This document shows, one piece after another, positions 743-31,010 of a stretch of 33,371 nt of DNA (positions are counted from its first letter, which is position 1; every line of letters begins with the position of its first letter). Origin of the DNA: Anaerolineae bacterium (GTDB taxonomy: Bacteria > Chloroflexota > Anaerolineae > 4572-78 > NAK82); the NCBI GenBank assembly GCA_025062175.1, contig JANXAX010000002.1:1-33371 (forward strand). The letters run 5' to 3'. Position numbers and translations under genes: made by a program. The notes under the pieces were generated by a model that did no database searches, was not told the DNA's origin, and worked only from the letters and a program-made list of their open reading frames with translations.

Positions 743-748
743 AGTTAT

Positions 749-13768: not shown

Positions 13769-14266
13769 TCAGCCGATCGTGACCAGGATCTGATTCTGTT
13801 CGACGCGGTCGCCCGTCTTGACGCGCACGCTGCGCACAATGCCGCCGCGCGGTGCCTTGAACTCGTTCTGCATCTTCATCGATTCTAACACGACCACCCG
13901 TTCACCAGCCGCCACCTCCTGGCCGACGACGACAGGCACATCCACCACCACACCTGGCATCGGCGCCTTGATGAGGATCTCGCCCACTGGCGTCGTCGGC
14001 ACCCGCTGTAAGCCGGCCAGACGCCGCGTGCGCTCATCCTCCACTTTGACTTCAAAGAGGCCCTCCTGCATCACGAGCAAGTAACGTTCTTCTTGCTCGT
14101 CGATGTAGACATCATAGGAACGGCCGTCTACCAGCAGGGAGAACAGATGCGAGCGACCAATGCTCTGCATATCGACGACGTGCGGCACCCCGTTGACCGT
14201 CACCTCACCGGCGCGATTGATCTCGATGACGTATTCCTTCTCCTCGATAGTGGCAATGTACTTCAC
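13769..14266 (-). CDS. accB: biotin carboxyl carrier protein of acyl-CoA carboxylase
   Basis: C-terminal biotinyl domain with the attachment motif VLESMKMQNEF. Confidence 0.85.
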   Translation of the reverse strand: MKYIATIEEKEYVIEINRAGEVTVNGVPHVVDMQSIGRSHLFSLLVDGRSYDVYIDEQEERYLLVMQEGLFEVKVEDERTRRLAGLQRVPTTPVGEILIKAPMPGVVVDVPVVVGQEVAAGERVVVLESMKMQNEFKAPRGGIVRSVRVKTGDRVEQNQILVTIG

Positions 14267-14286
14267 GGGGCGATTCCCTCACCGGT

Positions 14287-15783
14287 TCAGCGCAGAGGTC
14301 GACGCAATGCGTCGCGCCGTGCGGCCATCTTCCACGGGCTGAGACGATCTTGGTGCAGCAGCACCGCTTGCTGCGTGCGCTGATGGGCAAATAGAGTGGC
14401 GGCGATGGCCGCGACCTCCGGGATGTGTGGCTGCACTGTCTGCTCGATAGTAAAGTGGTTTTCTAGGAAACGCGTGTCCAATTGACCTCCTTGATAACGG
14501 GTGCTGTTCATCACTTGAATATGGAAAGGGATTGTGGTCTTGACTCCCACAATCTGGTACTCCACCAATGCGCGGCGCATGCGCAAAATTGCTTCAGCAC
14601 GCGTCTCGCCCCAGACGATCAGCTTGGCGATCAGCGAGTCGTAATACGGTGTGATCTGCATCCCCTGATAGATACCGCTTTCCAGACGTACTCCAGGACC
14701 GGTCGGTTCCCAGAGGCCCACGATCTCACCCGTGGAGGGCATGAAATTGTGATAGGGGTCTTCGGCCAGGATGCGGCATTCGATCGACCAGCCTTTAATC
14801 CGGATGTCATCTTGGCTGTAGCGCAATTTGCGGCCGGCGGCAATGCGCAACATCTCTTTGACGATGTCGACTCCGGTCACCATTTCGGTCACGGCGTGTT
14901 CCACTTGCAGGCGCGTGTTCATTTCTAGGAAGTAGAAGTTGCCATCTTGATCCAGGAGGAACTCAACTGTGCCGGCGCTGACATAGCCCGCCTGTTTAGC
15001 CACCTTCACCGCTGCCTCGCCCATGCGCCTGCGCAGATCCTCGTTCAGGGCGAGCGACGGAGCTTCTTCGATCAGCTTTTGATGCCGCCGTTGGATGGAA
15101 CACTCGCGTTCACCGAGGTGGATGACGTTGCCGTGCTGATCCGCCAGGATCTGGAACTCGATGTGGCGGATGGTGTCCAACATTTTTTCCACATAGACGC
15201 GGTCATCGCCGAAAGCAGCACGCGCTTCGTTGCGCGCGAGGCGCAACGCCTCGGGCAACTCCTCGAGCGTGTTCACCCGGCGCATCCCCTTGCCTCCACC
15301 GCCTGCGGCTGCTTTCACCAACAGCGGGAAGCCAATCGCAGCGCATTTGGCCATCAAGTCGTCGTCATGGAGGGTCTCCTGGACGCCGGGGATGATCGGG
15401 ATGCCGGCGGCGGCCATAGTGTTGCGCGCCACTGTCTTATCACCCATCATACGCATTGCGGCGGGCGGTGGTCCGATCCAGATGAGCCCGGCGTCGAGAA
15501 CAGCTTGGGCAAATTCAGGGTTCTCGGCCAGGAAACCATAACCCGGATGGATGCCGTCGACCTGGGCTTTCTTTGCCACATCAATGATGCGATCGATGCG
15601 CAGATAGCTTTCGATGGCGGGCGCGGGGCCGATGCAATAAGCTTCCTGCGCATGCCGCACATGGGGCGCCGTGCGGTCCGCCTCGGAGTAGACGGCCACT
15701 GTGGCCAACCCCATCTCCTGACAAGCGCGCATGATGCGCACCGCGATTTCACCGCGATTAGCCACCAACACTTTCCTGAGCAT
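14287..15783 (-). CDS. accC: acetyl/propionyl-CoA carboxylase biotin carboxylase subunit
   Basis: MLRKVLVANRGEIAVRIMRAC N-terminus, ATP-grasp GGGGKGMR, and EMNTRLQVEH. Confidence 0.95.
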   Translation of the reverse strand: MLRKVLVANRGEIAVRIMRACQEMGLATVAVYSEADRTAPHVRHAQEAYCIGPAPAIESYLRIDRIIDVAKKAQVDGIHPGYGFLAENPEFAQAVLDAGLIWIGPPPAAMRMMGDKTVARNTMAAAGIPIIPGVQETLHDDDLMAKCAAIGFPLLVKAAAGGGGKGMRRVNTLEELPEALRLARNEARAAFGDDRVYVEKMLDTIRHIEFQILADQHGNVIHLGERECSIQRRHQKLIEEAPSLALNEDLRRRMGEAAVKVAKQAGYVSAGTVEFLLDQDGNFYFLEMNTRLQVEHAVTEMVTGVDIVKEMLRIAAGRKLRYSQDDIRIKGWSIECRILAEDPYHNFMPSTGEIVGLWEPTGPGVRLESGIYQGMQITPYYDSLIAKLIVWGETRAEAILRMRRALVEYQIVGVKTTIPFHIQVMNSTRYQGGQLDTRFLENHFTIEQTVQPHIPEVAAIAATLFAHQRTQQAVLLHQDRLSPWKMAARRDALRRPLR

Positions 15784-15797
15784 CGTGCCCTATACCC

Positions 15798-17348
15798 TTA
15801 CAGGGGGATGTTGCCATGCTTCTTAGGAGGATTCTGATCGCGCTTGTTCTGGAGCATCTCTAAGGCATTGATCAAGCGCGGACGGGTATGGCTGGGTTCG
15901 ATAATGTCGTCCAGATAGCCCCAGCTGGCCGCGACATAGGGATTGGCAAAGGCATTGCGATACTCTTCAATGAGCCGTGCCCGCAGGCGCTCGGGATCAT
16001 CTGCCTCGGCCAGCTCCTTGCGGTACAGAATGTTGATCGCACCTTCGGCGCCCATTACGGCAATTTCAGCGCTAGGCCAAGCGAGATTCACATCACCACG
16101 AATGTGCTTGCTGGCAATCACAATATAAGCGCCCCCATAGGCCTTGCGGGTGATGACGGTGATCTTGGGCACCGTGGCCTCGCAATAAGCGTATAACAAC
16201 TTGGCGCCGTTGCGGATAATGCCTCCACGTTCCTGGTCCAGGCCGGGCAAGAAGCCGGGAACGTCCTCGAAGGTGATAATCGGGATGTTGAACGCATCGC
16301 AAAAGCGCACAAACCGCGCTCCCTTGATGGAGGCATTGTTGTCCAACGCGCCCGCCAACACGCAGGGTTGAGATGCGACAATGCCCACGGCGCGGCCGTT
16401 AAGGCGCGCAAACCCCACGATCAGATTGGGGGCAAAATGTTCCATGACTTCCAAGAAATCCCCGTTATCGACCACAGTATGGATGACCTGTTTCATATCG
16501 TAGGGCTGGGTAGGGTCGTCCGGTACAATGGTGTTCAAGCGGTCGTCGGTGCGCAAGGGGTCATCCCGGCAAGGAACGACGGGTGGATCTTCCATATTGT
16601 TCTGAGGCAGGAAGCTCATCAACCGCCGCAAGATGTAGATGGCATCCTCTTCGTTCTCGGCGATGAAATGCGCCACGCCGCTCTCGGTATTGTGCATCCA
16701 TGCTCCACCCAGGTCTTCGAAGGAGACCTCTTGTCCTGTGACCGCCTTGACCACATCAGGGCCGGTGACGAACATATAGCTGGTGTTCTTCACCATCACA
16801 ATAAAGTCCATCACTGCCGGCGAATAGACTGCGCCTCCGGCGCATGGCCCCATAATGCAAGAGATCTGGGGAATCACACCGCTGGCCATGACGTTGCGCA
16901 GGAAGATATCCCCGTAGCCTCCCAGCGCCACCACGCCCTCCTGGATGCGCGCACCACCGGAGTCGTTCAGGCCGATCACCGGCGCACCGTTCTTCATCGC
17001 TAGGTCCAGCACTTTGCAGATTTTATCGGCGTGGGCGCGCCCCAGGCTGCCCCCCATGACAGTGAAGTCCTGAGCAAATACAAATGTCAACCGTCCGTCG
17101 ATGGTGCCGTAGCCGGTCACTACGCCGTCGCCCAAGGGCTTGTTATGTTCCATGCCGAAGCCCGTGGCACGGTGGGTCACGAAACAGTCGATCTCGCGGA
17201 AGGAACCTTCATCCAGAAGCAGCTCCAGGCGCTCATAAGCGGTGAGTTTTCCCGCCTTGTGCTGACGCTCAATGCGCTCTGGCCCACCTCCTTGCCGGCT
17301 CAGCGCTTTCATTTCGCGCAAGCGTTGGATCGAAGGGGTTAGGCTCAT
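15798..17348 (-). CDS. acyl-CoA carboxylase carboxyltransferase subunit (PccB / methylmalonyl-CoA carboxyltransferase 12S-like)
   Basis: Typical N-terminus ([27 protein letters not shown]) and two crotonase-fold carboxyltransferase halves, 516 aa in total. Acetyl- versus propionyl-CoA preference cannot be decided by eye. Confidence 0.95.
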
Positions 17349-17758: not shown

Positions 17759-18916
17759 ATGAGAATCGGAGTACTTACCGGCGGTGGTGATGTTCCAGGA
17801 CTCAACCCGACCATCAAGGCACTTGTGTACCGCGCCCAGGACGAGGGATATGAGGTCATCGGCTTCCGGCGCGGATGGTGGGGTCCTTTGCACTACAATT
17901 TAGAAGACGATATGTACAACTGGAAATGTGCCGTCCGTCTCGACAAGAACGCGGTGCGCACCGTGGACCGCACGGGGGGCACATTCTTGCACACGTCGCG
18001 CACCCGTCCCTCGCACGTCGCCAGCAAGGAGCTGCCGGAGTTCTTGCGTCCGGCGGATTGGGATCCGAAAGATGGCAAGTTGCACGACTGCACGCCGCAC
18101 GTGCTCAAAGTGTTGGAGCACCTCCGCATCGACGTGTTGGTGCCGATCGGAGGCGATGATACGCTGAGCTATGCCCTGCGCCTGCACGAGGAAGGGGTGC
18201 CCATCGTCGCCATTCCCAAAACGATGGACAACGACGTTTTCGGCACCGACTATTGCATCGGATTCTCCACCGCGGTGACGCGCAGCGTCAATTTTATCCA
18301 CAACCTGCGCACGTCGGCGGGTTCCCATGAGCGCATCGGGATCATCGAACTGTTCGGGCGCAACTCTGGTGAAACTTCCCTGATCGCTGCCTATCTAAGT
18401 GGTGTTGATCGCGCCATCATTTCAGAGGTACCGTTTGACCCTGAAAAACTGGCCCGGCTTGTCATGGAGGACAAGCGCAACAATCCGAGCAACTACGCGA
18501 TGATCACCATCTCGGAGGGCGCGCAGATGATCGGCGACAAAGTGGTCGAATACGGCGAGCCGGATGCATATGGCCATCGCAAGCTGGGGGGCATCGGCAT
18601 CGTGACCGGTGATGTGCTGAAGAAGCTCACCGGCGAACATATCCTCTATCAGCAAGTTGCTTACCTGATGCGCTCCGGCGCGCCCGACTCGGTCGACTTG
18701 ATGGTGGGCTTCAACTTCGCCAACATGGCAATGGACCTGATCGTCGAGCGTCAGTTTGGTCGTATGGTGGCCATCCAAAAGGGCGTCTACACGAACGTGC
18801 CTATTGAGACGGTCGCCCAAGGCGTCAAACGTGTGGACGTGGATGAGCTGTACGACGTCGATCAGTATCGTCCCAAGGTGCGCCACGTGAACGGCAAGCC
18901 GATGTTCCTGTACTAA
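17759..18916 (+). CDS. 6-phosphofructokinase, PfkA family; signature residues predict a PPi-dependent enzyme
   Basis: [17 protein letters not shown]-terminus. GGDD at 18149-18160 (ATP-dependent enzymes have GGDG). IPKTMDNDV with Lys at 18218-18220 (ATP-dependent enzymes have PGTIDND). AGGAG RBS. Confidence 0.95.
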
Positions 18917-18945
18917 GTACACGTCCCGGATGGGACAGGTCTTCG

Positions 18946-18989
18946 GTGCCCCGTGCTCGTTCATCATAATAAAGAGCATGGGGCACTTT
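18946..18989 (+). terminator. putative intrinsic terminator after pfk
   Basis: GTGCCCCGTGCTC (18946-18958) pairs with GAGCATGGGGCAC (18974-18986), giving a 13 bp stem including one G-U pair and a 15-nt loop. It is followed by TTT. Confidence 0.5.
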
Positions 18990-19075
18990 CACGTTAAGGA
19001 GATCGGGACACGTTTTTGTGATACATAACCGGATGCGAGCACATTTTCCCCAGTGAAGGGTCAAGGAGGTCGGTC

Positions 19076-20056
19076 ATGGAGACACGTCAGCTGGGTTTCA
19101 CCGATCTGCATCTCAGTACTATCGGCTTGGGCGCCTGGGCGATGGGCGGTGGAGGTTACGTCTTTGGCTGGGGCCCGCAGGACGACGCCGAGTCGATTGC
19201 CACCATCCACCGTGCCCTGGACGAGGGCATCAACTGGATCGATACGGCACCCGGATATGGCCGCGGCCATTCCGAGGAAGTGGTGGGCAAAGCATTGGTA
19301 GGCCGGCGTCACCAGGTGTACATCGCCACCAAGTGTGGCATCCACGTGCTGCCCAATGGTGAGCTCACCTTCCGGCTCAAGCGCGATTCGGTGCGCCAGG
19401 AGATCGAAGACAGCTTGCGCCGTCTGCGCACCGATGTGATCGATCTATATCAGATCCACTGGCCACGTCCCGATGAGGACATCGAGGAAGCGTGGGAGGT
19501 GATTGCCGATGCCGTCCGCGCTGGCAAGATCCGTTACGCAGGTGTCTCCAACTTCAACATCAGCCAGATGGAACGGCTCCAGGCCATCCATCCGATCGCG
19601 TCCCTGCAGCCACCCTATAGCATGTTGAACCGCGACATCGAGTCCGAGATATTGCCCTACTGTGCCGCTCATAAAATTGGGGTGATCGTCTACAGTCCGA
19701 TGGAACGCGGTTTGCTCACCGGCAAGATCACGCGTGAGCGCATCCAGGCGATGCCGGAGGATGACCATCGCAAGCGCTATGCACCGTTCCAAGAGCCGCA
19801 GCTGAGCGTCAACCTGCGCTTGGTGGAACAGTTGCGGCCAATCGCGGAGCGCAACGGCAAGACCTTGGCGCAGCTAGCGCTGGCATGGGTGCTGCGCCGA
19901 CCCGAAGTGACCGGCGCGATCGCTGGCGCACGACGTCCCGACCAGGTTTCCGAATTGGTGGGTGCCAGCGGCTGGCAGCTCTCGGATGCCGATTTGAAAG
20001 AGATCGAAGCCCTCTTAGCACAACGCCAAGAAACCCTCGCCGAAATGGCCCATTAG
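19076..20056 (+). CDS. aldo/keto reductase
   Basis: AKR motifs INWIDTAPGYGRGHSEEVVG, IRYAGVSNF and YSPMERGLLTGK. AAGGAGG RBS. Confidence 0.9.
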   Translation: METRQLGFTDLHLSTIGLGAWAMGGGGYVFGWGPQDDAESIATIHRALDEGINWIDTAPGYGRGHSEEVVGKALVGRRHQVYIATKCGIHVLPNGELTFRLKRDSVRQEIEDSLRRLRTDVIDLYQIHWPRPDEDIEEAWEVIADAVRAGKIRYAGVSNFNISQMERLQAIHPIASLQPPYSMLNRDIESEILPYCAAHKIGVIVYSPMERGLLTGKITRERIQAMPEDDHRKRYAPFQEPQLSVNLRLVEQLRPIAERNGKTLAQLALAWVLRRPEVTGAIAGARRPDQVSELVGASGWQLSDADLKEIEALLAQRQETLAEMAH

Positions 20057-20094
20057 CGGGTGGGCAGCCGAGCTAGCCTGGTCCAGAACTATAG

Positions 20095-20140
20095 AAAGCT
20101 GCGCCTTCAAATCTGTCCTTATATAGGCGCAGCTTTTTCC
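20095..20140 (+). terminator. putative intrinsic terminator after the aldo/keto reductase gene
   Basis: AAAGCTGCGCC (20095-20105) and GGCGCAGCTTT (20126-20136) form an 11-bp perfect stem that runs into TTTTT. The 20-nt loop is large. Confidence 0.5.
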
Positions 20141-20308
20141 ATTATGAAAGGTGAATTTTCCCCGTTCACCCGCCCAGCTGACTACCGGTTTGCATTTCGG
20201 GAAAACATCTGGTAAAAAATGGTCTATCCCCATCGACAAAATTTTAAAGACCAGCATAGTTCTACTTGGGCTGAAGTGGTATTAGGTTCTGGTTAGGGAG
20301 AGTAAGTT

Positions 20309-22585
20309 ATGGGTAAGGCAAAGGTGGCACGACGAGACTATAGTCTGATCGGGAAGGATGCAGCACTGGCGGTTGAGAAGGGTTTAGCGAACGCTCCGTG
20401 GTATATCCCCCCTGTCCCCCGCGAAAAGATGCGCGAGCTGCTCGAGCGGCGCGATGGCCCAGCGATCCGCGATACCATTCTCTGGTTCTTCCTGCTCTTC
20501 GCCTTCGGACTGGCAGGCTATTGGCTCTGGGGCACTTACTGGGCCGCTATACCCTTTTTCATATACGGTGTGCTTTATGCCTCGGTCTCCGACTCGCGCT
20601 GGCATGAAACCAGTCACGGGACCGCTTTCAAGACCGACTGGCTGAACAACGTGCTGTATGAGATTGCTTCCTTCATGGTGCTGCGCGAGTCGGTGCCGTG
20701 GCGCTGGAGTCACACGCGGCATCATAGCGACACCATCATTGTCGGTCGCGACCCTGAGATCGCGGTGCCACGCCCGGCGAACTTGTTGGAGATCTTTTCG
20801 AAGTTCTTCAATGGGTTGGCCTGGATCAAGTATGTCCGAGGGGTCTTTTGGCACTGCCTCGGCCGGATGACCCCCGAAGAAAAGACCTATATTCCGGAAA
20901 CAGAATACCCTAAGGTGTTTCTCCGGGCACGAATATACGCTCTGATCTATCTGGGGGTTATTGCCCTGGCCGCCTATACTGGCAGCCTTCTGCCATTGAT
21001 GTACATCGGTCTACCTAATCTTTACGGTGCCTGGCTGATGGTCGTCTATGGCCTGACGCAACATGCTGGCCTGGCTGAAGACGTCCTGGACCATCGCCTG
21101 AACACGCGCACCTTCTATATGAATCCGGTGCACCGCTATCTCTACTGGAATATGGGCTATCACATCGAGCACCATATGTTCCCCTTGGTGCCATACCATG
21201 CATTGGACAAGCTGCATGAAGTGGTTAAGCCCTATATGCCCAAGCCCTATAAAGGGGTTATCGAGGTCTATCGCGAGCTCATCCCGGCACTGTGGCGTCA
21301 ATCCAAGGATCCTACCTATTACGTGAAACGGGAAGTGCCGGTTGTGGCCGAGACAGCGGAGACGCGCACAGCTATCCAGGTGTTGGTGGCCGAGATGGAA
21401 GCCACTCGCAGTGGCTGGGTCAAGGTGTGTCCGTGCCATCAACTACAAAACGAGGAGGTAATGCGTTTCGACTACCATAACAAGATCTATGCCATCTACC
21501 GAGCAGCCGATGGCAAGGTCTACGCCACCGATGGGGTCTGCACCCACGGCAACGCGTTGCTGACTGATGGATTTCTGCGTGGGTATCTCATTGAGTGCCC
21601 GAAGCACAATGGGCGCTTCGACATCCGTGACGGCTCACCCCAACGGCCGCCTGTTTCGATTCCGCTCAAGACTTATGAAGTGCGCGAAAGCGAGGGACAG
21701 GTGTGGCTCAACGTAGCAGTGATCCACGGCTCCGGCCTGGCAGAAGCAGCGCCGACCTATACGTTCCAGGTGGTCCGCAACGATAACGTCACCCCTGTGA
21801 TCAAGGAATTGATCCTCGAGGTGACGGACACCTCACCTGGCTTGACATACCAGCCGGGCGACTATCTGCAATTCGAGATACCGGCGTATGCAGAGCGCAC
21901 GTTGAGTGATGTGGAGGTTACACCGCCTTATGATAAAGTATGGGAGGAGCTCCATCTTTACGACCTCAAAGTAGCTAATCCGATCCCGTGTTATCGCAGC
22001 TACTCGTTTGCCAGCAATCCGGCTACGGAACGGCACTTGCGCTTCAATATCCGCTTGGCGACGCCGCCGCCTGGTCAGGATGTCTATGCTGGCGTCGGCT
22101 CCGCCTATCTCTTCGGCCTGAAGCCGGGGGACAAAGTCAGGGCGATAGGGCCGTTTGGCGCGTTTCACATCCGGCCGACCGATCGCGAGATGGTGTATTT
22201 AGGCGGGGGGTCTGGGATGGCGCCGTTGCGCTCCCATATTGCCTATCTCTTCGAGACCGCGAAGACCACGCGTCGGGTGAGCTATTGGTTCGGGGCGCGC
22301 ACGCGGCGTGACCTGTTCTACCAGGACTATTTTGCGCGCCTGGCCGAGCAGCATGCCAACTTCAGCTTCCATGTCGCTCTTTCCGAACCCCTGCCTGAAG
22401 ACGGATGGACCGGGCATACGGGTTTCATCCACGAGGTGTTGCAGCGCGAGTATCTCAACACACACCCCGACCCGACGCAGGTGGAATATTATCTCTGCGG
22501 CCCGCTACCGATGATCCGGGCAGCGGTCGCAATGCTCACCGAATTGGGGGTGAGTCGCGATCAGATCCTCAGCGACGAGTTCTAG
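20309..22585 (+). CDS. three-domain fusion: membrane fatty-acid-desaturase-family di-iron oxygenase + Rieske [2Fe-2S] domain + NqrF-like FAD/NAD(P)H oxidoreductase
   Basis: His boxes HETSH (20603-20617), HTRHH (20711-20725) and HIEHH (21161-21175), with TM segments between them. Rieske CTHG (from 21539) and CPKH (21596-21607). FNR-type RSYSFAS, GGGSGMAP and a C-terminus ALSEPLPEDGWTGHTGFIHEVL...YLCGPLPM...ILSDEF that closely parallels NqrF as I remember it. GGGAGAG RBS, single uninterrupted ORF of 758 aa. Confidence 0.85.
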   Translation: MGKAKVARRDYSLIGKDAALAVEKGLANAPWYIPPVPREKMRELLERRDGPAIRDTILWFFLLFAFGLAGYWLWGTYWAAIPFFIYGVLYASVSDSRWHETSHGTAFKTDWLNNVLYEIASFMVLRESVPWRWSHTRHHSDTIIVGRDPEIAVPRPANLLEIFSKFFNGLAWIKYVRGVFWHCLGRMTPEEKTYIPETEYPKVFLRARIYALIYLGVIALAAYTGSLLPLMYIGLPNLYGAWLMVVYGLTQHAGLAEDVLDHRLNTRTFYMNPVHRYLYWNMGYHIEHHMFPLVPYHALDKLHEVVKPYMPKPYKGVIEVYRELIPALWRQSKDPTYYVKREVPVVAETAETRTAIQVLVAEMEATRSGWVKVCPCHQLQNEEVMRFDYHNKIYAIYRAADGKVYATDGVCTHGNALLTDGFLRGYLIECPKHNGRFDIRDGSPQRPPVSIPLKTYEVRESEGQVWLNVAVIHGSGLAEAAPTYTFQVVRNDNVTPVIKELILEVTDTSPGLTYQPGDYLQFEIPAYAERTLSDVEVTPPYDKVWEELHLYDLKVANPIPCYRSYSFASNPATERHLRFNIRLATPPPGQDVYAGVGSAYLFGLKPGDKVRAIGPFGAFHIRPTDREMVYLGGGSGMAPLRSHIAYLFETAKTTRRVSYWFGARTRRDLFYQDYFARLAEQHANFSFHVALSEPLPEDGWTGHTGFIHEVLQREYLNTHPDPTQVEYYLCGPLPMIRAAVAMLTELGVSRDQILSDEF

Positions 22586-23532
22586 CTATTCAGGCGCAGG
22601 ATTTCGGCGGCGGTGCGCGCGTCGGTGATCAGCACATTGATGAACTTGCCGCGCAGCGCGCCCAGAATAGCCGATGCTTTGGCCAGGCCGCCGGCCACGC
22701 CAACCACCTTGGGTATCTGGGCCAGCATTTGCTGATTGGCCGCGATCAGCCGTCGGTTTAAGGAGATGTCAAGGACGCGTCCCTGCAGGTCGAACTGATA
22801 GCCCAGGACGTCGCCGACGGCCCCAGCGCGGGCGAGCTCGCGCAGGTCCGCGTCGGTGAGGAAGCCGGCGCGGTGTAGGCTGGACAATTCGGGATCGATC
22901 GTGCCGATACCGGTGATGGCAACTTCGACTTGCCGAATCAGCTCCATCGTGCTAAGGATGGCGGGTTCCTGGAGGAGGGCCAGTGCCGTTGCTTCGCTCT
23001 CGACCAACGCGGGCGCGTGCAGAAAGCGGATGGTGGCGCCCAGTTTTTGGGCTAGCAAGCGGGCACACTCCGGCCCGTCCACGGTCGAGTGGCCGCGCGC
23101 CACGGCGCCGAGCAGCTGGATCACCACGGCATCGCGCAGCGGAATGTTGGCCACATTGCGCGCCGTCTCATACACGGCGGTGCCCCAGCCGATGCCGATC
23201 TTGATCCCGTCGTGCAGCTGGCGCTGTAGGAAGCGCGCACATAGCTCGCCCAGATGCTGGATCAAAGTGGTATACTGGGCTGGAGCTTCGGCCAAGACCC
23301 ACGCATCTACCAAGCTGAAGGTCCTGACCAGCGTCGCGCCCAGCTCCGCGTCCACGTTGATGAGCTTATTGACCCGGATGACCACGATCCCTTCTTCACG
23401 AGCTTCCTGGAGCAGCCGCGATATGGTGGAACGCGACAGGCCAAGGCGACGAGCGATTTCCTCTTGGGTTCTGTTCTCTTCGTAGTACCACGCAGCGACT
23501 TGCTCGAGCAGCTCGTGACGGGTCTGGTACAT
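22582..23532 (-). CDS. SorC/DeoR-CggR family sugar-binding transcriptional regulator
   Basis: N-terminal HTH (AAWYYEENRTQEEIARRLGLSRSTISRLLQEAREEGIV) plus a SorC-type sugar-phosphate binding domain (GIGWGTAV, VGVAGG). Confidence 0.9.
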   Translation of the reverse strand: MYQTRHELLEQVAAWYYEENRTQEEIARRLGLSRSTISRLLQEAREEGIVVIRVNKLINVDAELGATLVRTFSLVDAWVLAEAPAQYTTLIQHLGELCARFLQRQLHDGIKIGIGWGTAVYETARNVANIPLRDAVVIQLLGAVARGHSTVDGPECARLLAQKLGATIRFLHAPALVESEATALALLQEPAILSTMELIRQVEVAITGIGTIDPELSSLHRAGFLTDADLRELARAGAVGDVLGYQFDLQGRVLDISLNRRLIAANQQMLAQIPKVVGVAGGLAKASAILGALRGKFINVLITDARTAAEILRLNS

Positions 23533-23603
23533 AGGCCGTGTGCTTTTGCTGATATTCCCCAGTCCCTTATCCGTCGCGGAAAAACCGACCTGTTCGCATT
23601 CCT

Positions 23604-24332
23604 CTACACCCGGAGCGCGGATTTCAGCCGCTGGGCATCTTCGAGAGTTTGACGCAGATCTGCCATGAAGCGTGCCCCGTGCGCCCCGTCCACCAGACGA
23701 TGATCACACGCGAGTGTGGCAATCATCGTCGGAGCGACAATGAGCTGATCATCGCGCACAACCGGGCGCTTCGCCACCCGTCCCACCGCTAGAATCGCCG
23801 CGTCGGGTGGACTGATCACAGCTTGAAAGGCATCGATGTCCAGCATCCCCATGTTAGAAAGAGTAAACGTGCGGCCGGTCAAGTCACCGGCTTGCAGGCG
23901 GCGTGCCCGTGCACCCGCCTCCAACTCGATGGCGCGATGGGCCAGCTCCAGCAGAGACATGCGCTCTGCATGATGGAGCACCGGGATGATCATCCCGTCT
24001 TCCAAGCCGACGACAAAACCGAGGTGTACGGAGGCGTACTCCTCAATCTCCTCCTCGATCAAGCGGGCGTTAAGCCGCGGGTGTTGCAACAACAAAGACG
24101 CCACGACTTTGAGGAGCAGGTGAGTGAGCGTCAGGCGCGGCTGGGGATGCATAGCTAGCAGCTCCTCCATCAACGTCTGAGCGGCGTGCATCTCGATCTC
24201 TTGGGTGAGGTAAAAATGGGGGATATCGCGCTTGCTGCGCACGACGCGCTCAATGATGGCACGACGCATCGCCGTGAGCGGCACGCGCCGCGCCACCACC
24301 GGTTGCGGAACGGATGTTTGTGCTGTGTTCAT
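23604..24332 (-). CDS. 2-oxoacid/acetoin dehydrogenase E2 catalytic (acyltransferase) domain protein, lacking lipoyl and subunit-binding domains
   Basis: The catalytic-core motif DHRLVDGAHGARF lies near the C-terminus. The protein begins directly at the catalytic-domain boundary (VPLTAMRRAIIERV). GGAAAGGA RBS lies 4 nt before the ATG. Confidence 0.9.
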   Translation of the reverse strand: MNTAQTSVPQPVVARRVPLTAMRRAIIERVVRSKRDIPHFYLTQEIEMHAAQTLMEELLAMHPQPRLTLTHLLLKVVASLLLQHPRLNARLIEEEIEEYASVHLGFVVGLEDGMIIPVLHHAERMSLLELAHRAIELEAGARARRLQAGDLTGRTFTLSNMGMLDIDAFQAVISPPDAAILAVGRVAKRPVVRDDQLIVAPTMIATLACDHRLVDGAHGARFMADLRQTLEDAQRLKSALRV

Positions 24333-24385
24333 CGGTCCTTTCCAGGCAGGTGGACGATCCTTCGGATCTCCCCCGGGCCTCTGAC

Positions 24386-24643
24386 CTATTCCGGCAGCGG
24401 CTCGTCGGGGTCGGCGATATAGGCCAAAACGTCACCCACCTTGGCGGTTTCGCCAGCTGGCACTTTGATGCGGCGCAAGATCCCGCTGCCGAGTGCCTCG
24501 ACCTGCAAAACCGCTTTGTCGGTTTCCACTTCAAAAAGCATCTCGCCGCGTTCGACGCGGTCGCCTTCCTGTTTCAACCATTGGAGTATCTTGTACGAAT
24601 CAGCTGTTTCAGTGAGAGGAGGCATCACTACAGAGGTGATCAT
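24386..24643 (-). CDS. stand-alone lipoyl-domain protein (lipoyl carrier of the E2)
   Basis: 85 aa with the lipoylation motif EVETDKAVLQVEA. GAGGAAAGG RBS. Confidence 0.85.
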   Translation of the reverse strand: MITSVVMPPLTETADSYKILQWLKQEGDRVERGEMLFEVETDKAVLQVEALGSGILRRIKVPAGETAKVGDVLAYIADPDEPLPE

Positions 24644-24700
24644 GGTCGCCTTTCCTCGCTTTTGTGCTCAAATTGGTTGCCGGGAAAAAACCATCCGCCA

Positions 24701-25708
24701 CTATGCCGAAGTGGACCGGACGGCCACCTCGGCGCCTATCATTTCTTTGACCACCTGGACCACTTGCGTCACGCCCGGAACGACCTGTTTCTCCAGTTGT
24801 GAATGTGCTGGCAGAGGCACGTGCAACCCGCCCAAGCGGCGCACCGGTGCTGCCAGGATGTCGAACAGCCTCTCTTGCAGGCTGGCCGCGATCTCTGCCC
24901 CGAACCCGCCGAACACACTCGCTTCGTGGATCACCACCGCCCGACGCGTCTTAGTCACGGAAGCGATCAGAGTATCCATATCCAGGGGCGCCAAAGTGCG
25001 CACATCCACCACCTCGGCGCTGATGCCAATCTGGCTGAGCTCCTGCGCTGCAGCCAGTGCGGTATGCACCATGTTGGAATAAGCGATCAGCGTGACATTG
25101 TTACCAGGTCGTTTGACGTCTGCCACGCCAATTGGAACCGTGTATTCGTCTTCAGGCACCTCTCCTTCTAAGGCGTACAGGCCTTTGTGCTCGATGAACA
25201 TCACCGGGTTGTCGTCGCGGATAGCGCTTTTGAGCAATCCCTTGGCATCATAAGGCGTGGCCGGCATCACCACTTTGAGGCCAGGCACGTGGGCAAACCA
25301 GGCTTCCAGGCTTTGGGAGTGTTGCGGCCCGGCGCCACGGCCGGTGCCCTGTTGGGTGCGGATGACCAGCGGCGCCTTCAGCTGGCCACCGAACATACCG
25401 TGGAGCTTGGCAGCCTGGTTGACGATCTGGTCCATAGCCAATGTGGCAAAGTCGATGTACATGATCTCGGCCACCGGACGCCCCCCCACGACGGCGGCGC
25501 CCAGTGCCGCACCGACGATGATCGCCTCGGACATCGGCGCATCGATGATGCGCTTCGGGCCAAACTCTTGCAGTAGACCTTGCGTGACTGCATAAGCGCC
25601 ACCATAACGCCCCACGTCCTCGCCGATCACGAACACGCGTGGGTCGCGTTGCATTTCTTCGCGCAATGCTTCTCGAAGTGCCTCGCGGTAACGAATCCTG
25701 CGCATCAT
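24701..25708 (-). CDS. alpha-ketoacid/acetoin dehydrogenase E1 component subunit beta
   Basis: Transketolase-like pyrimidine-binding and C-terminal domains (VFVIGEDVGRYGGAY, PMSEAIIVGAALGAA, NPVMFIEHK). Confidence 0.95.
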   Translation of the reverse strand: MMRRIRYREALREALREEMQRDPRVFVIGEDVGRYGGAYAVTQGLLQEFGPKRIIDAPMSEAIIVGAALGAAVVGGRPVAEIMYIDFATLAMDQIVNQAAKLHGMFGGQLKAPLVIRTQQGTGRGAGPQHSQSLEAWFAHVPGLKVVMPATPYDAKGLLKSAIRDDNPVMFIEHKGLYALEGEVPEDEYTVPIGVADVKRPGNNVTLIAYSNMVHTALAAAQELSQIGISAEVVDVRTLAPLDMDTLIASVTKTRRAVVIHEASVFGGFGAEIAASLQERLFDILAAPVRRLGGLHVPLPAHSQLEKQVVPGVTQVVQVVKEMIGAEVAVRSTSA

Positions 25709-25735
25709 GCTCTCCCCTTGCTTGACATAATCTCT

Positions 25736-26695
25736 TTACGCAAACACGTCTTCCAAGACGCTGTCCAAAGTGGCCGGCGGGCTCTCCTCGGCGAAGCGCA
25801 CCGCGTCGGCGATAACCTCTGCCACCTTTGCTTCGAGTGCATCCACGTCGGCCTGTGTCATAATCCCCTCCCGAAACAGGTGCTCCTGATAAAGGCGGAT
25901 TGGGTCGCGGGCGCGTTGTCTCGCCTCCTCTTCTTTGTCTCGGTACGGGCTTGGGTCACCGCGCGAGTGTCCCAGGAAGCGATAAGTTTGCGCGCCGATG
26001 AGTGTCGGACCTTCGCCCCGCCGAGCGCGCTCGATAGCCTGCAAAGCCACCTGGCGCACAGCTAGCACATCCTGACCATCCACTTCGATGCCGGGCATGC
26101 CATAGGCCTCGCCCTTGCGCGCGAACGAGTGTTCCGCCGTGGCATGCGTCCACGGCAGTGACATGGCATACTGGTTATTCTCACACACGAAAACGATCGG
26201 CAAGCGCCACAACGCAGCCATGTTGGCCGCTTCGTGGAAGATGCCCTCCGTCATCGCACCTTCTCCGAAGAAGGCGACAGTGACCCGGCCGTCGTTTTGC
26301 AGGCTCGACCATAACGCCGCACCCGTAGCGATGCCGATATGTCCGCCGACGATTCCGTTCGAGCCGAGATGGCCGAGCTGGACATCGACCAAGTGCATCG
26401 AGCCGCCACGGCCTTTGCAGTAACCTGTCTCTCGTCCCAACAGCTCGGCAATGATGCGGCGCAAATCGCCACCTCGGGCGATGATATGGCCATGCCCGCG
26501 GTGGGTGCTGGTGAGGTAGTCCTGCGGCTGCATTGCCGAGCAGACGCCGGTGGCCACCGCTTCCTGACCGATGCTCACGTGGCACATGCTGCTGGCCAGC
26601 TTTCCCTGGAGCAACAGCTCGAGTATCTTTTCTTCCGTGCGCCGGATCAGCACCATTGTGTAATACAAGTTGACCAACGTATCCCGATCTTCCAT
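25736..26695 (-). CDS. thiamine-diphosphate-dependent dehydrogenase E1 component subunit alpha (AcoA-like)
   Basis: TPP motif FFGEGAMTEG...NMA...VCENNQYA. THRGHGH and CKGRGGSMH motifs. At 319 aa it is short, like acetoin-type E1 alpha subunits. Confidence 0.95.
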   Translation of the reverse strand: MEDRDTLVNLYYTMVLIRRTEEKILELLLQGKLASSMCHVSIGQEAVATGVCSAMQPQDYLTSTHRGHGHIIARGGDLRRIIAELLGRETGYCKGRGGSMHLVDVQLGHLGSNGIVGGHIGIATGAALWSSLQNDGRVTVAFFGEGAMTEGIFHEAANMAALWRLPIVFVCENNQYAMSLPWTHATAEHSFARKGEAYGMPGIEVDGQDVLAVRQVALQAIERARRGEGPTLIGAQTYRFLGHSRGDPSPYRDKEEEARQRARDPIRLYQEHLFREGIMTQADVDALEAKVAEVIADAVRFAEESPPATLDSVLEDVFA

Positions 26696-26718
26696 AAGCC
26701 AGTCCTCTTCATTACTTG

Positions 26719-28278
26719 TTACCGATGAGCCTGCCGTGCGATGTGGCGAGTCATTTCGTGCATCAGATCGCGCATCTGAGGATAGGTGTTGATGTATTTA
26801 TCCACGAAGAACTGGTAGGCTTCGTGAGTAGCCGGATTCGGTATAATGCGCTCGGTCACGCGCACCATTGCCTTGGCGGCGGCTGCCAGGTTGGGATATG
26901 CGCCGCAGCCCACCGCTGCGCAGATGGCGGCGCCCAGCACCGCTGCGGACGCTCCCGCTTCGGTCAGGGAGATCGGCACGTTGCTCACATCGGCGTGGAT
27001 CTGCATCCACAGCTTGCTCTTGGTCGGTCCTCCCGACGCTACCAGCTCATGGGCGGTGTAGCCATATTGGCGCATCGTGCGCAAGATGTGCTCGGTGCCA
27101 TAGGCAATGCCCTCCATAATGGCGCGGAACACGTGCGCAGGGGTGTGGGACAGGGTGAATCCCCAGATCATCCCGCGTGCCTCCGGGTCGACATAGGGGG
27201 TGCGATTGCCCTGCCAATAATCCAGCACGATCAACCCATCCGAGCCAGGGGGCAATTGGGCGGCTTCCTCAGTGAGCAAGTCGTAGGCGCTGATGCCCAA
27301 GGCCTGCGCTTTTTGCACATAGCTGCCGGCGAAATTGTCGCGGAACCAGCGCACCACCGAGCCGGTTGAAATCTGGCCACCCTCTACCGTGTATTGGCCA
27401 GGGATCAGACAATCTGTGTAAGCACCAAAGATGCCCTTGCCATGAAATTGATGGGCGGATTGCCCCAAGAGCAGGTGCGAGGAACCCACGATAAAGGCCA
27501 TCTTACCCGGCTCGACCACGTCCAAACCGAGCATCGCGATATAGGCGTCGGCGCCACCTTGCGCCACCGGAATGCCAGGCTTGAGTCCGAGTGCGTCGGC
27601 CGCTTCGGGTCGCAAAGTGCCCACCACCTCGCCGAGATTGAGGATGCGCTGCGGGAATTTGGCCAGCAAATCCCCCAGTCCGATACCTTCGTAGAAATCC
27701 GTTGGGAAGCCCCCTGTGTTGCGATCATAATACCAGCGGATGCTGGTGTTGTTGATGCTGCCCACCCATTCGCCGGTCAAGCGGTGCATGCACCAATCCA
27801 CATACTCGCCCACGTAGCGCGCTTGTGCCCAAACCTCGGGTTGATTTTCCTTGACCCAGAGCGCCTTACATGGCATCCATTCCGCTGACACGTTGCCATA
27901 GCCGTTGTATTTGAGAGCCGCGTACCCGCTGGCGGCGATGCGGCGCGCCTGGTCGGCAGCGCGCACGTCCATCCAGATGATGGCCGGACGCAACGGCTGG
28001 AAACGTTCATCCATGAAGACCACAGTGCAGCTGGTGAAATCACCGCTGAGACCCGTGATCGCATGCGGATGCAATCCTGACTTCTCAAGCGCCTTTCGCA
28101 CAGCGCTGACGATCGCCGTCCACCACTCTTCGGGGTTCTGTTCTGCCCATCCTGGGTGTGGGTGATAGACCGGATAGGGCACTGCCTCCGAAGCGACCAT
28201 CTTCCCCTGGGGATCAAAGATGGCGGCACGCACGCTCTCCGTGCCGCAGTCGATGCCGAGAAAGTGCTGATCTGCCAC
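26719..28278 (-). CDS. FGGY-family carbohydrate kinase (ribulokinase / pentulose-kinase-like)
   Basis: FLGIDCGTESVRAAIFD, DYWQGNRTPYVDPEARG and ASGGPTKSKLWMQIHADV. GTG start is preceded by AAGGAGGA. Confidence 0.9.
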   Translation of the reverse strand: MADQHFLGIDCGTESVRAAIFDPQGKMVASEAVPYPVYHPHPGWAEQNPEEWWTAIVSAVRKALEKSGLHPHAITGLSGDFTSCTVVFMDERFQPLRPAIIWMDVRAADQARRIAASGYAALKYNGYGNVSAEWMPCKALWVKENQPEVWAQARYVGEYVDWCMHRLTGEWVGSINNTSIRWYYDRNTGGFPTDFYEGIGLGDLLAKFPQRILNLGEVVGTLRPEAADALGLKPGIPVAQGGADAYIAMLGLDVVEPGKMAFIVGSSHLLLGQSAHQFHGKGIFGAYTDCLIPGQYTVEGGQISTGSVVRWFRDNFAGSYVQKAQALGISAYDLLTEEAAQLPPGSDGLIVLDYWQGNRTPYVDPEARGMIWGFTLSHTPAHVFRAIMEGIAYGTEHILRTMRQYGYTAHELVASGGPTKSKLWMQIHADVSNVPISLTEAGASAAVLGAAICAAVGCGAYPNLAAAAKAMVRVTERIIPNPATHEAYQFFVDKYINTYPQMRDLMHEMTRHIARQAHR

Positions 28279-28329
28279 GTGATCCTCCTTGGCTGGTAGA
28301 ATCTGAAAATTCTTCGGAAGCGCACGCGC

Positions 28330-29322: not shown

Positions 29323-29358
29323 CCCAATTTTTCCTCCTGCTACCTCCAAAAATTAAGA

Positions 29359-30882: not shown

Positions 30883-30921
30883 TTTGGGGTAAATCTCCCA
30901 AACGTGTTAAAGGGTATGAAA

Positions 30922-30955: not shown

Positions 30956-31010
30956 CTTGCGAATCAAGGACTGGACATCTCCGCCTGGGCCGTGAAGAGT
31001 GGATGCCGGT

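Follow-up and report, generated by a model that had tools for sequence, protein, structure and literature searches.

The fusion gene and its surroundings

The stretch of DNA analysed (33,371 nucleotides from a contig of an Anaerolineae bacterium; hereafter the window) contains on its forward strand one uninterrupted open reading frame with an ATG start (20309..22585; 758 aa plus stop) that constitutes the coding sequence of a D-E-F fusion, i.e. of a protein in which a membrane oxygenase domain (D), a Rieske domain (E) and a reductase module (F) follow each other. Both the single frame and the good ribosome-binding site described in the first-pass annotation were recovered. The features of the locus are as follows (L003-L005 denote three close relatives with a syntenic locus):

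19076..20056, + strand: aldo-keto reductase gene, upstream neighbour (Pfam Aldo_ket_red, 1.2e-84; context)
about 20093-20143, + strand: terminator-like hairpin 3' of the aldo-keto reductase gene (RNA fold of 20057-20160)
20144..20294, + strand: putative own promoter/operator region (aligned with the corresponding intergenic stretch in L003-L005)
20295-20302, + strand: Shine-Dalgarno-like AGGGAGAG, 6 nt 5' of the fusion ATG (read from the sequence)
20309..21343, + strand: D domain, MocD-like membrane di-iron oxygenase of the FA_desaturase superfamily, aa 1-345 (Pfam PF00487; MocD identity)
20474..20593, + strand: first hydrophobic hairpin, aa about 56-95, predicted to form two transmembrane helices (Kyte-Doolittle scan)
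20603..20617, + strand: His box 1, H99-E-T-S-H103 (motif reading)
20711..20725, + strand: His box 2, H135-T-R-H-H139 (motif reading)
20927..21058, + strand: second hydrophobic hairpin, aa about 207-250, predicted to form two transmembrane helices (Kyte-Doolittle scan)
21161..21175, + strand: His box 3, H285-I-E-H-H289 (motif reading)
21344..21415, + strand: linker 1, aa 346-369 (weak conservation, low model confidence)
21416..21712, + strand: E domain, MocE-like Rieske [2Fe-2S] ferredoxin, aa 370-468 (Pfam Rieske, TIGR02377, MocEa identity)
21539-21607, + strand: Rieske ligands C411-T-H413 ... C430-PK-H433 (motif reading)
21713..21757, + strand: linker 2, aa 469-483, short tether between Rieske and FAD domains (conservation analysis)
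21758..22183, + strand: FAD-binding part of the NqrF-like reductase, aa 484-625, with R563-S-Y-S-FAS (Pfam, NCBIfam, PDB matches)
22184..22582, + strand: NAD(H)-binding part, aa 626-758, with G632-GGSGMAP639, C730-G and the C-terminal D-E-F758 (Pfam, PDB match)
22582-23532, - strand: SorC-family sugar-binding regulator gene, convergent neighbour (Pfam Sugar-bind, 2.6e-64; context)

The upstream hairpin consists of a 14-bp stem (AAAGCUGCGCCU...AGGCGCAGCUUU) and an 18-nt loop followed by a U-run, and is kept in L003 and L004; it was overlooked by a simple consensus terminator scan because the loop limit of that scan was 8 nt. The adjoining intergenic region, a putative promoter/operator of the fusion gene, contains blocks that are conserved in the alignment with L003-L005 (e.g. 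TTTGCAT and TCGA..AA.T.TTAAAG) and a single weak sigma-70-like match at 20233-20260. At its 3' end the fusion gene overlaps by 4 nt (at the stop codon) with the gene of the SorC-family regulator, the nearest NCBIfam models of which (DeoR and LsrR) both score under their cut-offs. Lying between the hairpin and this convergent gene, the fusion gene looks monocistronic, in agreement with the initial claim, and appears as a singleton in the window as well as in the syntenic L003-L005, which share the aldo-keto reductase gene. The fusion gene is flanked there by generic sugar genes only (PFK, aldo-keto reductase, SorC regulator, ABC transporter, kinase); methyl-handling genes were found beside the fusion gene neither in the window nor in L003-L005, and the 33-kb window contained no mocCABR, iol/inositol, LacI regulator or PanB-like gene.

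Domain composition and kinship of the fusion protein

The combination of desaturase, Rieske and NqrF-like domains, originally proposed from motifs, was borne out by profile HMM search, with every Pfam match above its gathering score (FA_desaturase PF00487, residues 78-316, 1.7e-34, 120.2 bits versus a cut-off of 29.7; Rieske, 370-456, 2.8e-15, 56.4 bits; FAD_binding_6, 561-620; NAD_binding_1, 631-739). Generally, His boxes of the types HX3-4H, HX2-3HH and H/QX2-3HH supply the di-iron ligands in the membrane desaturase-like superfamily, and the three boxes of the D domain fit this pattern: all eight box histidines together with H252, H262 and H303 are invariant among 64 D, D-E and D-E-F sequences, and H99, E100 and H103 of box 1 are so both in these and in a set of 30 fusions. 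The same 30 fusions have the Rieske ligands C411, H413, C430 and H433, the RxYS and GGGxGMxP motifs, C730-G and the terminal F758 in common without exception; the RxYS FAD motif, the GGxGxxP nucleotide motif and a C-terminal aromatic residue are the criteria of ferredoxin-NADP+ reductase-like flavoenzymes, and all three are present in the fusion.

Members of the desaturase-like superfamily carry two hydrophobic hairpins, the four membrane helices of which bring the His boxes to one face. In the AlphaFold2 model of residues 1-470 (pLDDT 82, pTM 0.82), helices are predicted at both hydrophobic hairpins (49-72 and 77-91; 197-224 and 228-248), and the Rieske part superimposes on the Rieske ferredoxin 5bok with a target-normalised TM-score of 0.94 and an rmsd of 1.1 Å. 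Among solved structures, none matched the sequence of the D domain at E <= 10, and the 50 matches listed in the fold search, mostly Rieske proteins, included none described as alkane hydroxylase or stearoyl-CoA desaturase. The cofactors probably face the cytoplasm, as the hydropathy pattern and the basic N-terminus suggest and as had been assumed from the start.

The C-terminal 275 amino acids share 45% identity over 272 residues with the solved FAD/NADH domain of NqrF (PDB 7qty; 1.5e-77), and the score against the NqrF model TIGR01941 (309.1 bits) exceeds the cut-off of 295; NCBI and IMG name such fusion proteins "NqrF" (e.g. the relatives P0008, P0014, P0021, P0086 and P0101). That the protein is the NADH-oxidising subunit of a Na+-translocating NADH:quinone reductase deserves, however, next to no credence and is contradicted by the domain map: the profile match covers only positions 130-403 of 405, the N-terminal helix and plant-type domain of NqrF are replaced by 483 residues of MocD-like plus Rieske domains, the fusion gave no Fer2 match (the earlier observation of a Rieske cluster in place of the plant-type one thus stands), and nqrA-E-like families were absent from the 24 neighbouring ORFs scanned in the window. 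Through this label, metagenome-assembled genomes may be wrongly credited with sodium-pumping respiration.

The architecture search suggested in the first-pass annotation revealed that the three-part composition is shared by all of the 120 best database clusters (drawn from NCBI, ENA, JGI and Logan assemblies; 747-793 aa, mostly 754-769), which align collinearly with the fusion protein at 62-92% identity and 99-100% coverage. All three domains lie in one frame at 18 fetched loci (12 from a genome-contig scan, 6 by protein look-up), and the fusions of L003-L005 are 82-90% identical to the one in the window. Among relatives, D may stand alone, be joined to E or form part of a D-E-F fusion; this last form is not rare but widespread in Chloroflexota metagenome-assembled genomes. 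The natural occurrence of all these forms makes a split arrangement biologically possible, and in principle two or three genes might have been merged by assembly or gene calling; such an artefact is nevertheless virtually excluded by the unbroken frame in the window, by the close relatives and by the uniform length and alignment of the 120 clusters, which are independent and stem from four data sources. The fusion is a real gene and no assembly artefact, because more than 120 independent assemblies have the same full-length fusion.

The nearest named relatives of the first two domains are rhizobial. With MocD of R. etli CIAT 652, the comparison sequence used in place of the original L5-30 / strain 1a MocD, the D domain shares 52% identity over 346 aa (E 4e-132); with the best-matching rhizobial homologues, including those of S. 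meliloti pSymB and Rhizobium sp. SL42, the identity amounts to 55-59%. The E domain is 42% identical to R. etli MocEa over 100 aa (BLASTP, E 2e-31), and the best NCBIfam model for residues 370-468 is that of the MocE family (TIGR02377, 108.5 bits, under the cut-off of 136.15). In contrast, the fusion protein exhibited no similarity to R. etli MocFa (best E 0.86), and a MocF-like gene was not found at any non-rhizobial locus examined. Judged by homology, the protein is a close relative of MocD/MocE/MocF in which D and E are fused and F is swapped for an unrelated NqrF-type module. The domain order fits the complete chain from NAD(P)H via FAD and Rieske cluster to the di-iron centre that had been read into the single polypeptide. 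As a fusion it is uncharacterised, as first suspected (a full-text search of the accessible papers found none characterising a D-E-F fusion), whereas the chain itself has a counterpart in MocD/MocE/MocF, known genetically from rhizopine catabolism; likewise, the initial list of electron donors (cytochrome b5, rubredoxin, XylA and Rv3230c for membrane enzymes, Rieske ferredoxins for soluble di-iron enzymes) had overlooked the pairing of membrane oxygenase and Rieske protein in MocDEF. On this sequence evidence the electron chain is not new in kind; new are only the fusion and the exchanged reductase.

Gene neighbourhoods and the proposed reaction

In the rhizobial clusters the D homologue is followed by a MocE-family Rieske ferredoxin, an FAD reductase, a PanB-like gene and iolG. 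Adjacent genes encode a LacI regulator, a sugar ABC transporter and a TIM-barrel protein, and folD and purU are found there too. Two papers citing Bahar 1998 (PMC13434037, PMC2593844) describe MocDEF as an oxygenase system demethylating 3-O-methyl-scyllo-inosamine. This assignment reportedly rests on genetics and a model. Homologues of mocDEF were induced by a root exudate topped by pinitol (PMC5789663), a role in the catabolism of an inositol derivative has been assigned to mocDEF clusters with LacI and TIM-barrel genes at their flanks (PMC3538637), and mocDEF lies directly 5' of xylA2 in woody-host P. syringae strains (PMC5132102).

Among 34 loci of relatives outside Rhizobiaceae and non-syntenic with the window, Pfam assignment of the neighbouring genes gave the following raw counts, to be read without genomic background: sugar-type ABC ATPase at 14, URO-D-type methyltransferase at 12, AP_endonuc_2 TIM barrel at 8, B12-binding corrinoid protein at 7, xylose isomerase at 5, pterin-binding methyltransferase at 4 and a PanB-like gene at 3. 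The clearest run of genes is that of L012, which encodes a D-E-F fusion of 63% identity: on the same strand, an ABC transporter, two URO-D genes, a B12-binding protein and a further URO-D gene precede the fusion gene, and a PanB-like gene, a pterin methyltransferase, a xylose isomerase and an FGGY kinase follow it. Similar gene sets are present at L034 and L038; no informative neighbours were seen at the D-E-F loci L035, L036, L037 and L039. The neighbourhoods of the relatives thus point to methylated sugars or cyclitols, and the likely substrate is polar rather than a hydrocarbon chain.

Based on these data we consider the protein, with a probability of about 0.55, to be a self-sufficient, membrane-anchored, NADH-driven monooxygenase of three modules, a single-chain version of MocD/MocE/MocF that would demethylate a methylated sugar or cyclitol with release of formaldehyde. 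NADH (possibly NADPH) would reduce the FAD of the C-terminal NqrF-type module, from which electrons would pass one at a time to the Rieske [2Fe-2S] domain that immediately precedes this module and is tethered to it, where real NqrF has its plant-type ferredoxin domain. The Rieske domain would in turn reduce, at the cytoplasmic face, the di-iron centre held by the histidines of the N-terminal domain with its four membrane helices; this centre would activate O2 and hydroxylate the methyl ether carbon of a small polar methylated cyclitol or sugar, and the resulting hemiacetal would split into the free hydroxyl compound and formaldehyde. We infer electron flow, cytoplasmic topology, O-demethylation chemistry and substrate class alike. 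To our knowledge there is no established pairing in which an FNR/NqrF-type module passes electrons from FAD directly to a Rieske cluster, and this counts against the proposal; Rieske ferredoxins usually receive their electrons from a glutathione-reductase-type reductase or via a plant-type cluster. Also speaking against it are the TIGR02377 score of the E domain under the MocE cut-off, the singleton appearance of the gene in the window and in L003-L005, and the D-E-F loci that lack informative neighbours.

The same electron chain might instead drive some other reaction with a small polar compound as substrate, namely hydroxylation of a non-methyl C-H bond (of a sugar, deoxy-sugar or cyclitol) or N-/S-demethylation (of an osmolyte or amine). 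In favor of this unlikely but serious alternative are the non-sugar transporters near some fusions (a phosphonate-type binding protein together with an AraC regulator at the Oceanospirillaceae locus L013, an NMT1-type ABC system at L037), the rhamnose mutarotase genes at L034 and L035, the PhyH dioxygenase gene adjoining the fusion gene of L031 and the lack of any methyl-handling clue at the window locus; against it, O-demethylation by MocDEF is the sole functional assignment in the family, and the corrinoid methyltransferase sets, PanB-like genes, folD and purU beside relatives indicate a methyl/C1 theme. The first-pass annotation had named acyl lipid, hydrocarbon, carotenoid or sphingoid-like substrates, for which no support was found. 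A lipid-directed enzyme with its own reductase chain (acyl-lipid desaturase or hydroxylase, alkane hydroxylase, carotenoid ketolase or sphingoid-type modifier) would agree with the Pfam family FA_desaturase, with the membrane-embedded domain of four hydrophobic helices and with the acyl-CoA carboxylase genes 3-6 kb upstream (13769-17348), and natural fusions of desaturases or AlkB with electron donors are known. These carboxylase genes are, however, located on the opposite strand, non-adjacent and common only to the close syntenic relatives L004 and L005; none of the 25 best listed NCBIfam models covers the D domain, its nearest named relatives are MocD and not DesA, AlkB, XylM or CrtW, and at the 34 independent loci the recurring neighbours are sugar and methyl-transfer genes, with no lipid, alkane or carotenoid genes among them, which together render the lipid alternative improbable.

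If the O-demethylase reading with its substrate class holds true, abundant uncultured Chloroflexota would be shown to use methylated plant, algal or microbial carbohydrates, by a second, non-P450 route of oxidative sugar demethylation. More tentatively, and with less than even odds, D-E-F O-demethylase and neighbouring corrinoid methyltransferase sets might jointly form an unrecognised methyl-sugar utilisation system of Chloroflexota and other uncultured bacteria, with an oxygen-dependent and an oxygen-independent arm, in which the NqrF-type module feeds the Rieske domain directly; this would be the first case of such a transfer. Membrane di-iron oxygenases are difficult to study since they need separate, often unidentified electron partners, and we know of no MocD-type enzyme that has been reconstituted; with the all-in-one natural fusion, first biochemical and structural work on this branch comes directly within reach, and the fusion is also a candidate biocatalyst for sugar or inositol demethylation.

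Comparison with known electron-transfer and demethylation systems

AlkB-rubredoxin, AlkB-ferredoxin-reductase and cytochrome b5-desaturase fusions as well as the XylM/XylA pair are known; they have the superfamily fold and the His-box di-iron site in common with the D-E-F fusion and resemble it in the tethering of an electron donor to a membrane oxygenase, but their carrier is rubredoxin, plant-type ferredoxin or cytochrome b5 instead of a Rieske cluster. The Rieske domain has the fold and ligand motif of CarAc, BphA3, NDO ferredoxin and T4moC (31-39% identity to solved Rieske ferredoxins, target-normalised TM-score 0.85-0.94, rmsd about 1 Å); those proteins donate to oxygenases of the Rieske/mononuclear-iron type or to soluble di-iron hydroxylases, whereas the Rieske domain of the fusion is covalently tethered on both sides and would serve a membrane di-iron centre. 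With NqrF, the fusion shares the FAD/NADH domains with their RxYS and GGxGMxP motifs and the aromatic residue at the C-terminus; it differs in lacking the N-terminal membrane helix and the plant-type [2Fe-2S] domain, the place of which is taken by the Rieske domain, in the absence of a surrounding Nqr operon and in its proposed electron acceptor, an oxygenase and not a quinone reductase complex.

The cytochrome P450 O-demethylase for 6-O-methyl-D-galactose of marine Bacteroidota is biochemically proven (PMC6292453, PMC9400963). Oxidative O-demethylation, formaldehyde release and the feed by ferredoxin and reductase, as proposed for the fusion, are common to both; the P450 is, however, a soluble haem enzyme of an unrelated family. 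The closest correspondence is found with MocDEF: full-length homology and the three His boxes link the D domain to MocD, the Rieske domain shares 42% identity with MocE, the order of oxygenase, Rieske ferredoxin and reductase is identical, electrons would likewise run from NAD(P)H via flavin and Rieske cluster to a membrane di-iron centre, and a carbohydrate or cyclitol gene context is seen around relatives of the fusion. In contrast to MocDEF with its three polypeptides, the fusion is a single one from a Chloroflexota host (Anaerolineae/Ardenticatenia-like) and encoded in a window devoid of mocCABR, PanB-like and inositol genes; and where MocF is a glutathione-reductase-type flavoprotein, the fusion possesses a non-homologous module of the NqrF/FNR type.

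Domain architecture and distribution of the fusion protein

The gene at 20309-22585 (+) reads without interruption as one 758-aa ORF; it starts with ATG and has the Shine-Dalgarno-like sequence AGGGAGAG six bases 5' of that codon, in agreement with the first-pass annotation, whose listed motifs were all recovered at their positions. The assignment of a desaturase-family oxygenase domain (D), a Rieske domain (E) and an NqrF-like FAD/NADH reductase module (F) was confirmed by Pfam, all domains scoring above the gathering values (the letters follow MocD, MocE and MocF, the separate oxygenase, Rieske ferredoxin and reductase of rhizobial rhizopine catabolism).

Features of the fusion protein (amino acid positions; gene on the + strand)
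78-316, FA_desaturase domain (Pfam, 1.7e-34)
99-103, His box 1, HETSH
135-139, His box 2, HTRHH
285-289, His box 3, HIEHH
370-456, Rieske domain (Pfam, 2.8e-15)
C411-x-H413 and C430-x-x-H433, Rieske ligands
563-569, RSYSFAS motif
632-639, GGGSGMAP motif
FAD_binding_6 and NAD_binding_1 domains (Pfam, above gathering scores)

The last 275 residues matched the solved FAD/NADH domains of NqrF (E 1.5e-77, 45% identity), the linker between the Rieske and FAD domains comprised about 15 residues, and hydropathy revealed two hydrophobic hairpins (aa 55-95 and 207-250). In an alignment of 30 fusions the cofactor-binding residues were all invariant; the invariant histidines were the eight of the boxes plus H252, H262, H297 and H303, accompanied by the four Rieske ligands, RxYS, GGGxGMxP, C730-G and the C-terminal DEF. 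The protein is very probably an oxygenase of MocD type that carries its own Rieske and flavin reductase modules in a self-contained unit. A basic N-terminus together with a 2+2 arrangement of helices would put His boxes and C-terminal domains alike in the cytoplasm.

Computed from 30 close fusions, the AlphaFold2 model was poor for D (pLDDT 68, falling below 50 around the His boxes); that of residues 1-470 from 64 more diverse sequences reached a pLDDT of 82 and a pTM of 0.82, the latter being compatible with a defined mutual arrangement of the modelled D and Rieske domains. The modelled Rieske part superposed on solved Rieske ferredoxins at about 1 Å. Rieske proteins dominated the fold search, the sole D-domain match among the best 50 being 8xks_K (query-normalised TM-score 0.46), and by sequence the isolated D domain matched no PDB entry at E <= 10.

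The fusion is genuine and common: in a collection of 5.8 billion proteins the best 120 clusters, which derive from NCBI, ENA, JGI and Logan assemblies, were all full-length three-domain proteins (747-793 aa, mostly 754-769; 62-92% identity, 99-100% coverage), and these 120 independent assemblies rule out an assembly artefact for practical purposes. A scan of species-representative genomes yielded 31 loci; MAGs with the full fusion bore the labels Anaerolineae, Ardenticatenia, Chloroflexia, PVC group, Bacteroidales and Oceanospirillaceae, and one was labelled Propionivibrio. The proteins of three loci syntenic with the window (L003-L005) were 82-90% identical to the window protein, which marks the source as an Anaerolineae/Ardenticatenia-like member of the Chloroflexota. 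Compared with window 17759-23532, their flanking phosphofructokinase, aldo-keto reductase and SorC genes were 94-98% identical, whereas identity in the fusion domains was only 79-94%, so the oxygenase is evolving faster than the genes around it.

The D domain retrieved 358 of 1.84 billion cluster representatives at E <= 1e-30, among them stand-alone proteins (~330-370 aa), D-E proteins (~455-520 aa) and one three-domain protein. In a word-indexed search with the D domain, D-E proteins made up 95 of the 120 matches listed (Chloroflexota and Verrucomicrobiota among others). True D-E genes were directly followed by other genes (L014, L015, L020, L025), and the 8-kb surroundings of these two-domain genes held no reductase gene. 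At one locus (L022:7947-10856) the D-E gene occurred in two tandem copies; in the second, the Rieske end is disrupted over two frames, a pattern that points to recent duplication followed by decay. In the D-domain neighbour-joining tree the D, D-E and D-E-F forms were interleaved, with rhizobial MocD and Acidimicrobiia D-E forms as sister group; since this tree is too crude and some short "D" proteins are probably truncated gene calls, no claim is made on the number of fusion events or of reductase gains and losses.

Many of the ~760-aa fusions and some D-E proteins are named "Na+-transporting NADH:ubiquinone oxidoreductase subunit F" by NCBI and IMG (the window 20309-22585 product and the database matches P0004, P0007, P0008, P0014, P0021, P0086 and P0101). 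The TIGR01941 equivalog model scored 309 bits (cut-off 295) from the C-terminal 275 residues alone; as the cut-off is passed on the C-terminal third, the misannotation is systematic, and false Na+-NQR calls in metagenome-assembled genomes could follow. An actual NqrF identity runs counter to the domain map and to the absence of nqr genes among the neighbouring ORFs scanned, and can be dismissed with near certainty.

Gene context in the window and in related loci

Features of the window
828-7353 (+), LacI regulator, SBP_bac_1 binding protein, two BPD_transp_1 permeases and GH127 beta-L-arabinofuranosidase: an arabino-oligosaccharide-type utilisation cluster
7763-9964 (-), 732-aa PMT_2-type membrane glycosyltransferase
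13769-17348 (-), biotin carboxyl carrier protein, biotin carboxylase and carboxyltransferase: an acyl-CoA carboxylase gene set
about 20093-20143, hairpin with 14-bp stem and U-run
22582-32105 (-), lsr-like run: SorC regulator (nearest models DeoR, LsrR), E1 alpha/beta and E2 (pyruvate/acetoin-dehydrogenase-like), FGGY pentulose-type kinase, double-ATPase ABC protein, permease and ribose-type binding protein
23604-24332 and 24386-24643 (-), split E2 acyltransferase

Both boundaries proposed at first pass were recovered. Upstream of the fusion gene lie phosphofructokinase and aldo-keto reductase genes, the latter followed 3' by the hairpin, which was revealed by RNA folding, is conserved in two relatives and was not reported by a consensus terminator scan; downstream, the convergent SorC-family regulator gene overlaps the fusion stop codon by 4 nt. 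The fusion gene stands alone between the hairpin and this regulator, beyond which the E1/E2, kinase and ribose-type ABC transporter genes follow on the other strand. Every NCBIfam match in the lsr-like run was below its cut-off, and kinase, regulator and aldo-keto reductase fell below every equivalog cut-off. The region is carbohydrate-gene-rich, yet names no substrate and is only weakly informative, and four further fusion loci (L035, L036, L037, L039) were equally uninformative in their neighbours.

Some features of the window concern its other genes. The E2 acyltransferase is divided into two ORFs in different frames and about 50 bp apart, an 85-aa one for the lipoyl domain and a 242-aa one for the catalytic domain; the latter, short ORF is also present in L003-L005, so the division may be real and not due to faulty sequencing. 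The acyl-CoA carboxylase genes lie on the opposite strand, 3-6 kb ahead of the fusion gene, and are shared with L004 and L005 only. The GC content was 0.47-0.48 at 8001-10000 compared with 0.54-0.63 elsewhere; this dip coincides with the PMT_2-type gene, which may have been acquired horizontally.

For the relatives, the ORFs of all fetched loci were clustered, and recurrent clusters were identified with Pfam and then counted.

Recurrent neighbours at 34 loci outside Rhizobiaceae and non-syntenic with the window (raw counts without genomic background)
Sugar-type ABC ATPase, 14/34
URO-D-type methyltransferase, 12/34
ABC permease, 10/34
AP_endonuc_2 TIM barrel, 8/34
Periplasmic binding protein/LacI, 8/34
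B12-binding corrinoid protein, 7/34
Xylose isomerase, 5/34
DUF4380, 5/34
DUF4432 (mutarotase-like), 5/34
Pterin-binding methyltransferase, 4/34
PanB-like protein, 3/34

The common theme of these loci is a transported carbohydrate or cyclitol carrying a methyl group. The L012 fusion shares 63% identity with the window protein and belongs to one same-strand run, in the order ABC transporter, two URO-D genes, corrinoid protein, a further URO-D gene, the fusion, a PanB-like gene, a pterin methyltransferase, xylose isomerase and an FGGY kinase. At L034, a LacI gene and the fusion are flanked by two sugar ABC systems, and the locus further encodes a rhamnose mutarotase, three URO-D proteins, and a corrinoid protein together with the activator that reduces it; the neighbourhood of L038 is similar. 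In loci from Bacteroidales, Oceanospirillaceae and Anaerolineae a TIM-barrel gene directly adjoins the fusion, reminiscent of the one next to rhizobial mocDEF (PMC3538637).

Full or partial corrinoid methyltransferase sets (1-3 URO-D-type genes, B12-binding protein, pterin-binding methyltransferase, RACo activator) were present at L008:1200-8000, L012:1-13300, L021:1-11000, L031:1-7400, L034:1500-22265 and L038:400-10800, sharing gene runs with sugar ABC transporters, rhamnose mutarotase, xylose isomerase and the MocD-like fusions. They may represent an oxygen-independent route of methyl-sugar demethylation beside the oxygen-dependent one; a literature search found no paper on such a corrinoid route.

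Published observations agree with the methyl-group theme. Woody-host Pseudomonas syringae carries mocDEF immediately upstream of an additional, second gene for xylose isomerase (PMC5132102), the role of mocDEF still being called unresolved in August 2026 (PMC5132102, PMC13434037). Three Thermoflexales/Anaerolineae loci (L014, L015, L020; about 1-11500) combine a D-E gene, a TIM-barrel gene and xylose isomerase and so mirror mocDEF-xylA2 (PMC5132102); the parallel hints at a methyl-aldose substrate common to these lineages and P. syringae, across phyla. In Rhizobium mesoamericanum, mocDEF homologues were induced by a root exudate, the main component of which was pinitol, a methyl-inositol (PMC5789663); a paper on pinitol catabolism covers fungal P450s and demethylation-independent bacteria (PMC9788770).

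Proposed reaction and alternative readings

The favoured reading, to which we assign a probability of roughly 0.55, is an NADH-driven membrane O-demethylase of a methylated sugar or cyclitol. NADH would reduce the FAD of the NqrF-type module, from which electrons would pass to the Rieske cluster, in the domain joined on by the ~15-residue linker, and on to the di-iron site of the His boxes at the cytoplasmic face of a four-helix membrane domain; O2 activated there would hydroxylate the methyl carbon of the methyl ether, and the resulting hemiacetal would decompose, releasing formaldehyde and leaving the sugar or cyclitol without its methyl group. The released C1 unit would plausibly be handled by PanB-like, FolD and PurU proteins.

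That the same machine performs a different reaction on a polar substrate is a less likely alternative, in whose favour speak the non-sugar transporters at some loci and the lack of any methyl clue in the window, set beside the methyl-group theme of the relatives. The first-pass annotation had leaned towards lipid or hydrocarbon-type substrates; neither homology ranking nor gene context lends support to such an enzyme, lipid, alkane and carotenoid genes being nowhere recurrent among the relatives' neighbourhoods, and we consider it improbable.

As an O-demethylase, the fusion may constitute a second route for oxidative carbohydrate demethylation, unrelated to the known P450 (PMC6292453); it offers a tractable entry point to an unstudied branch of oxygenases.

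Relationship to the MocDEF system

A translated plasmid search with the N-terminal 345 residues returned 288 records, mostly of Rhizobium and Sinorhizobium (at most 59% identical across the whole domain). The operon in these records encodes, in order, a desaturase-family protein, a MocE-family Rieske ferredoxin, an FAD-dependent oxidoreductase, a ketopantoate-hydroxymethyltransferase-like protein and often iolG; it is divergent from a LacI regulator and adjoins a TIM-barrel gene, a sugar ABC transporter, folD and purU. In R. etli CIAT 652 its first three genes are annotated mocD, mocEa and mocFa. The window protein resembles R. etli MocD (52% identity, 346 aa, E 4e-132) and MocEa (42%, 100 aa, E 2e-31), whereas MocFa shows no similarity; TIGR02377 (MocE family) was the best NCBIfam model for residues 370-468, with a score below its cut-off.

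Full-text literature search found neither a description of the fusion nor a biochemical study of any MocD-type enzyme. For the fusion itself this agrees with the first pass, which recognised no such domain combination as characterised; the nearest known system, MocDEF, had gone unrecognised, and given the kinship with MocD and MocE a Rieske-fed membrane oxygenase of the desaturase family is a known kind. In contrast to MocF, which is of glutathione-reductase type, the window protein carries a non-homologous NqrF-type module; this module lacks the plant-type ferredoxin domain of NqrF, the place of which is occupied by the Rieske domain. What is new compared with MocDEF is the covalent fusion of all parts and the swapped reductase, not a new category of enzyme.
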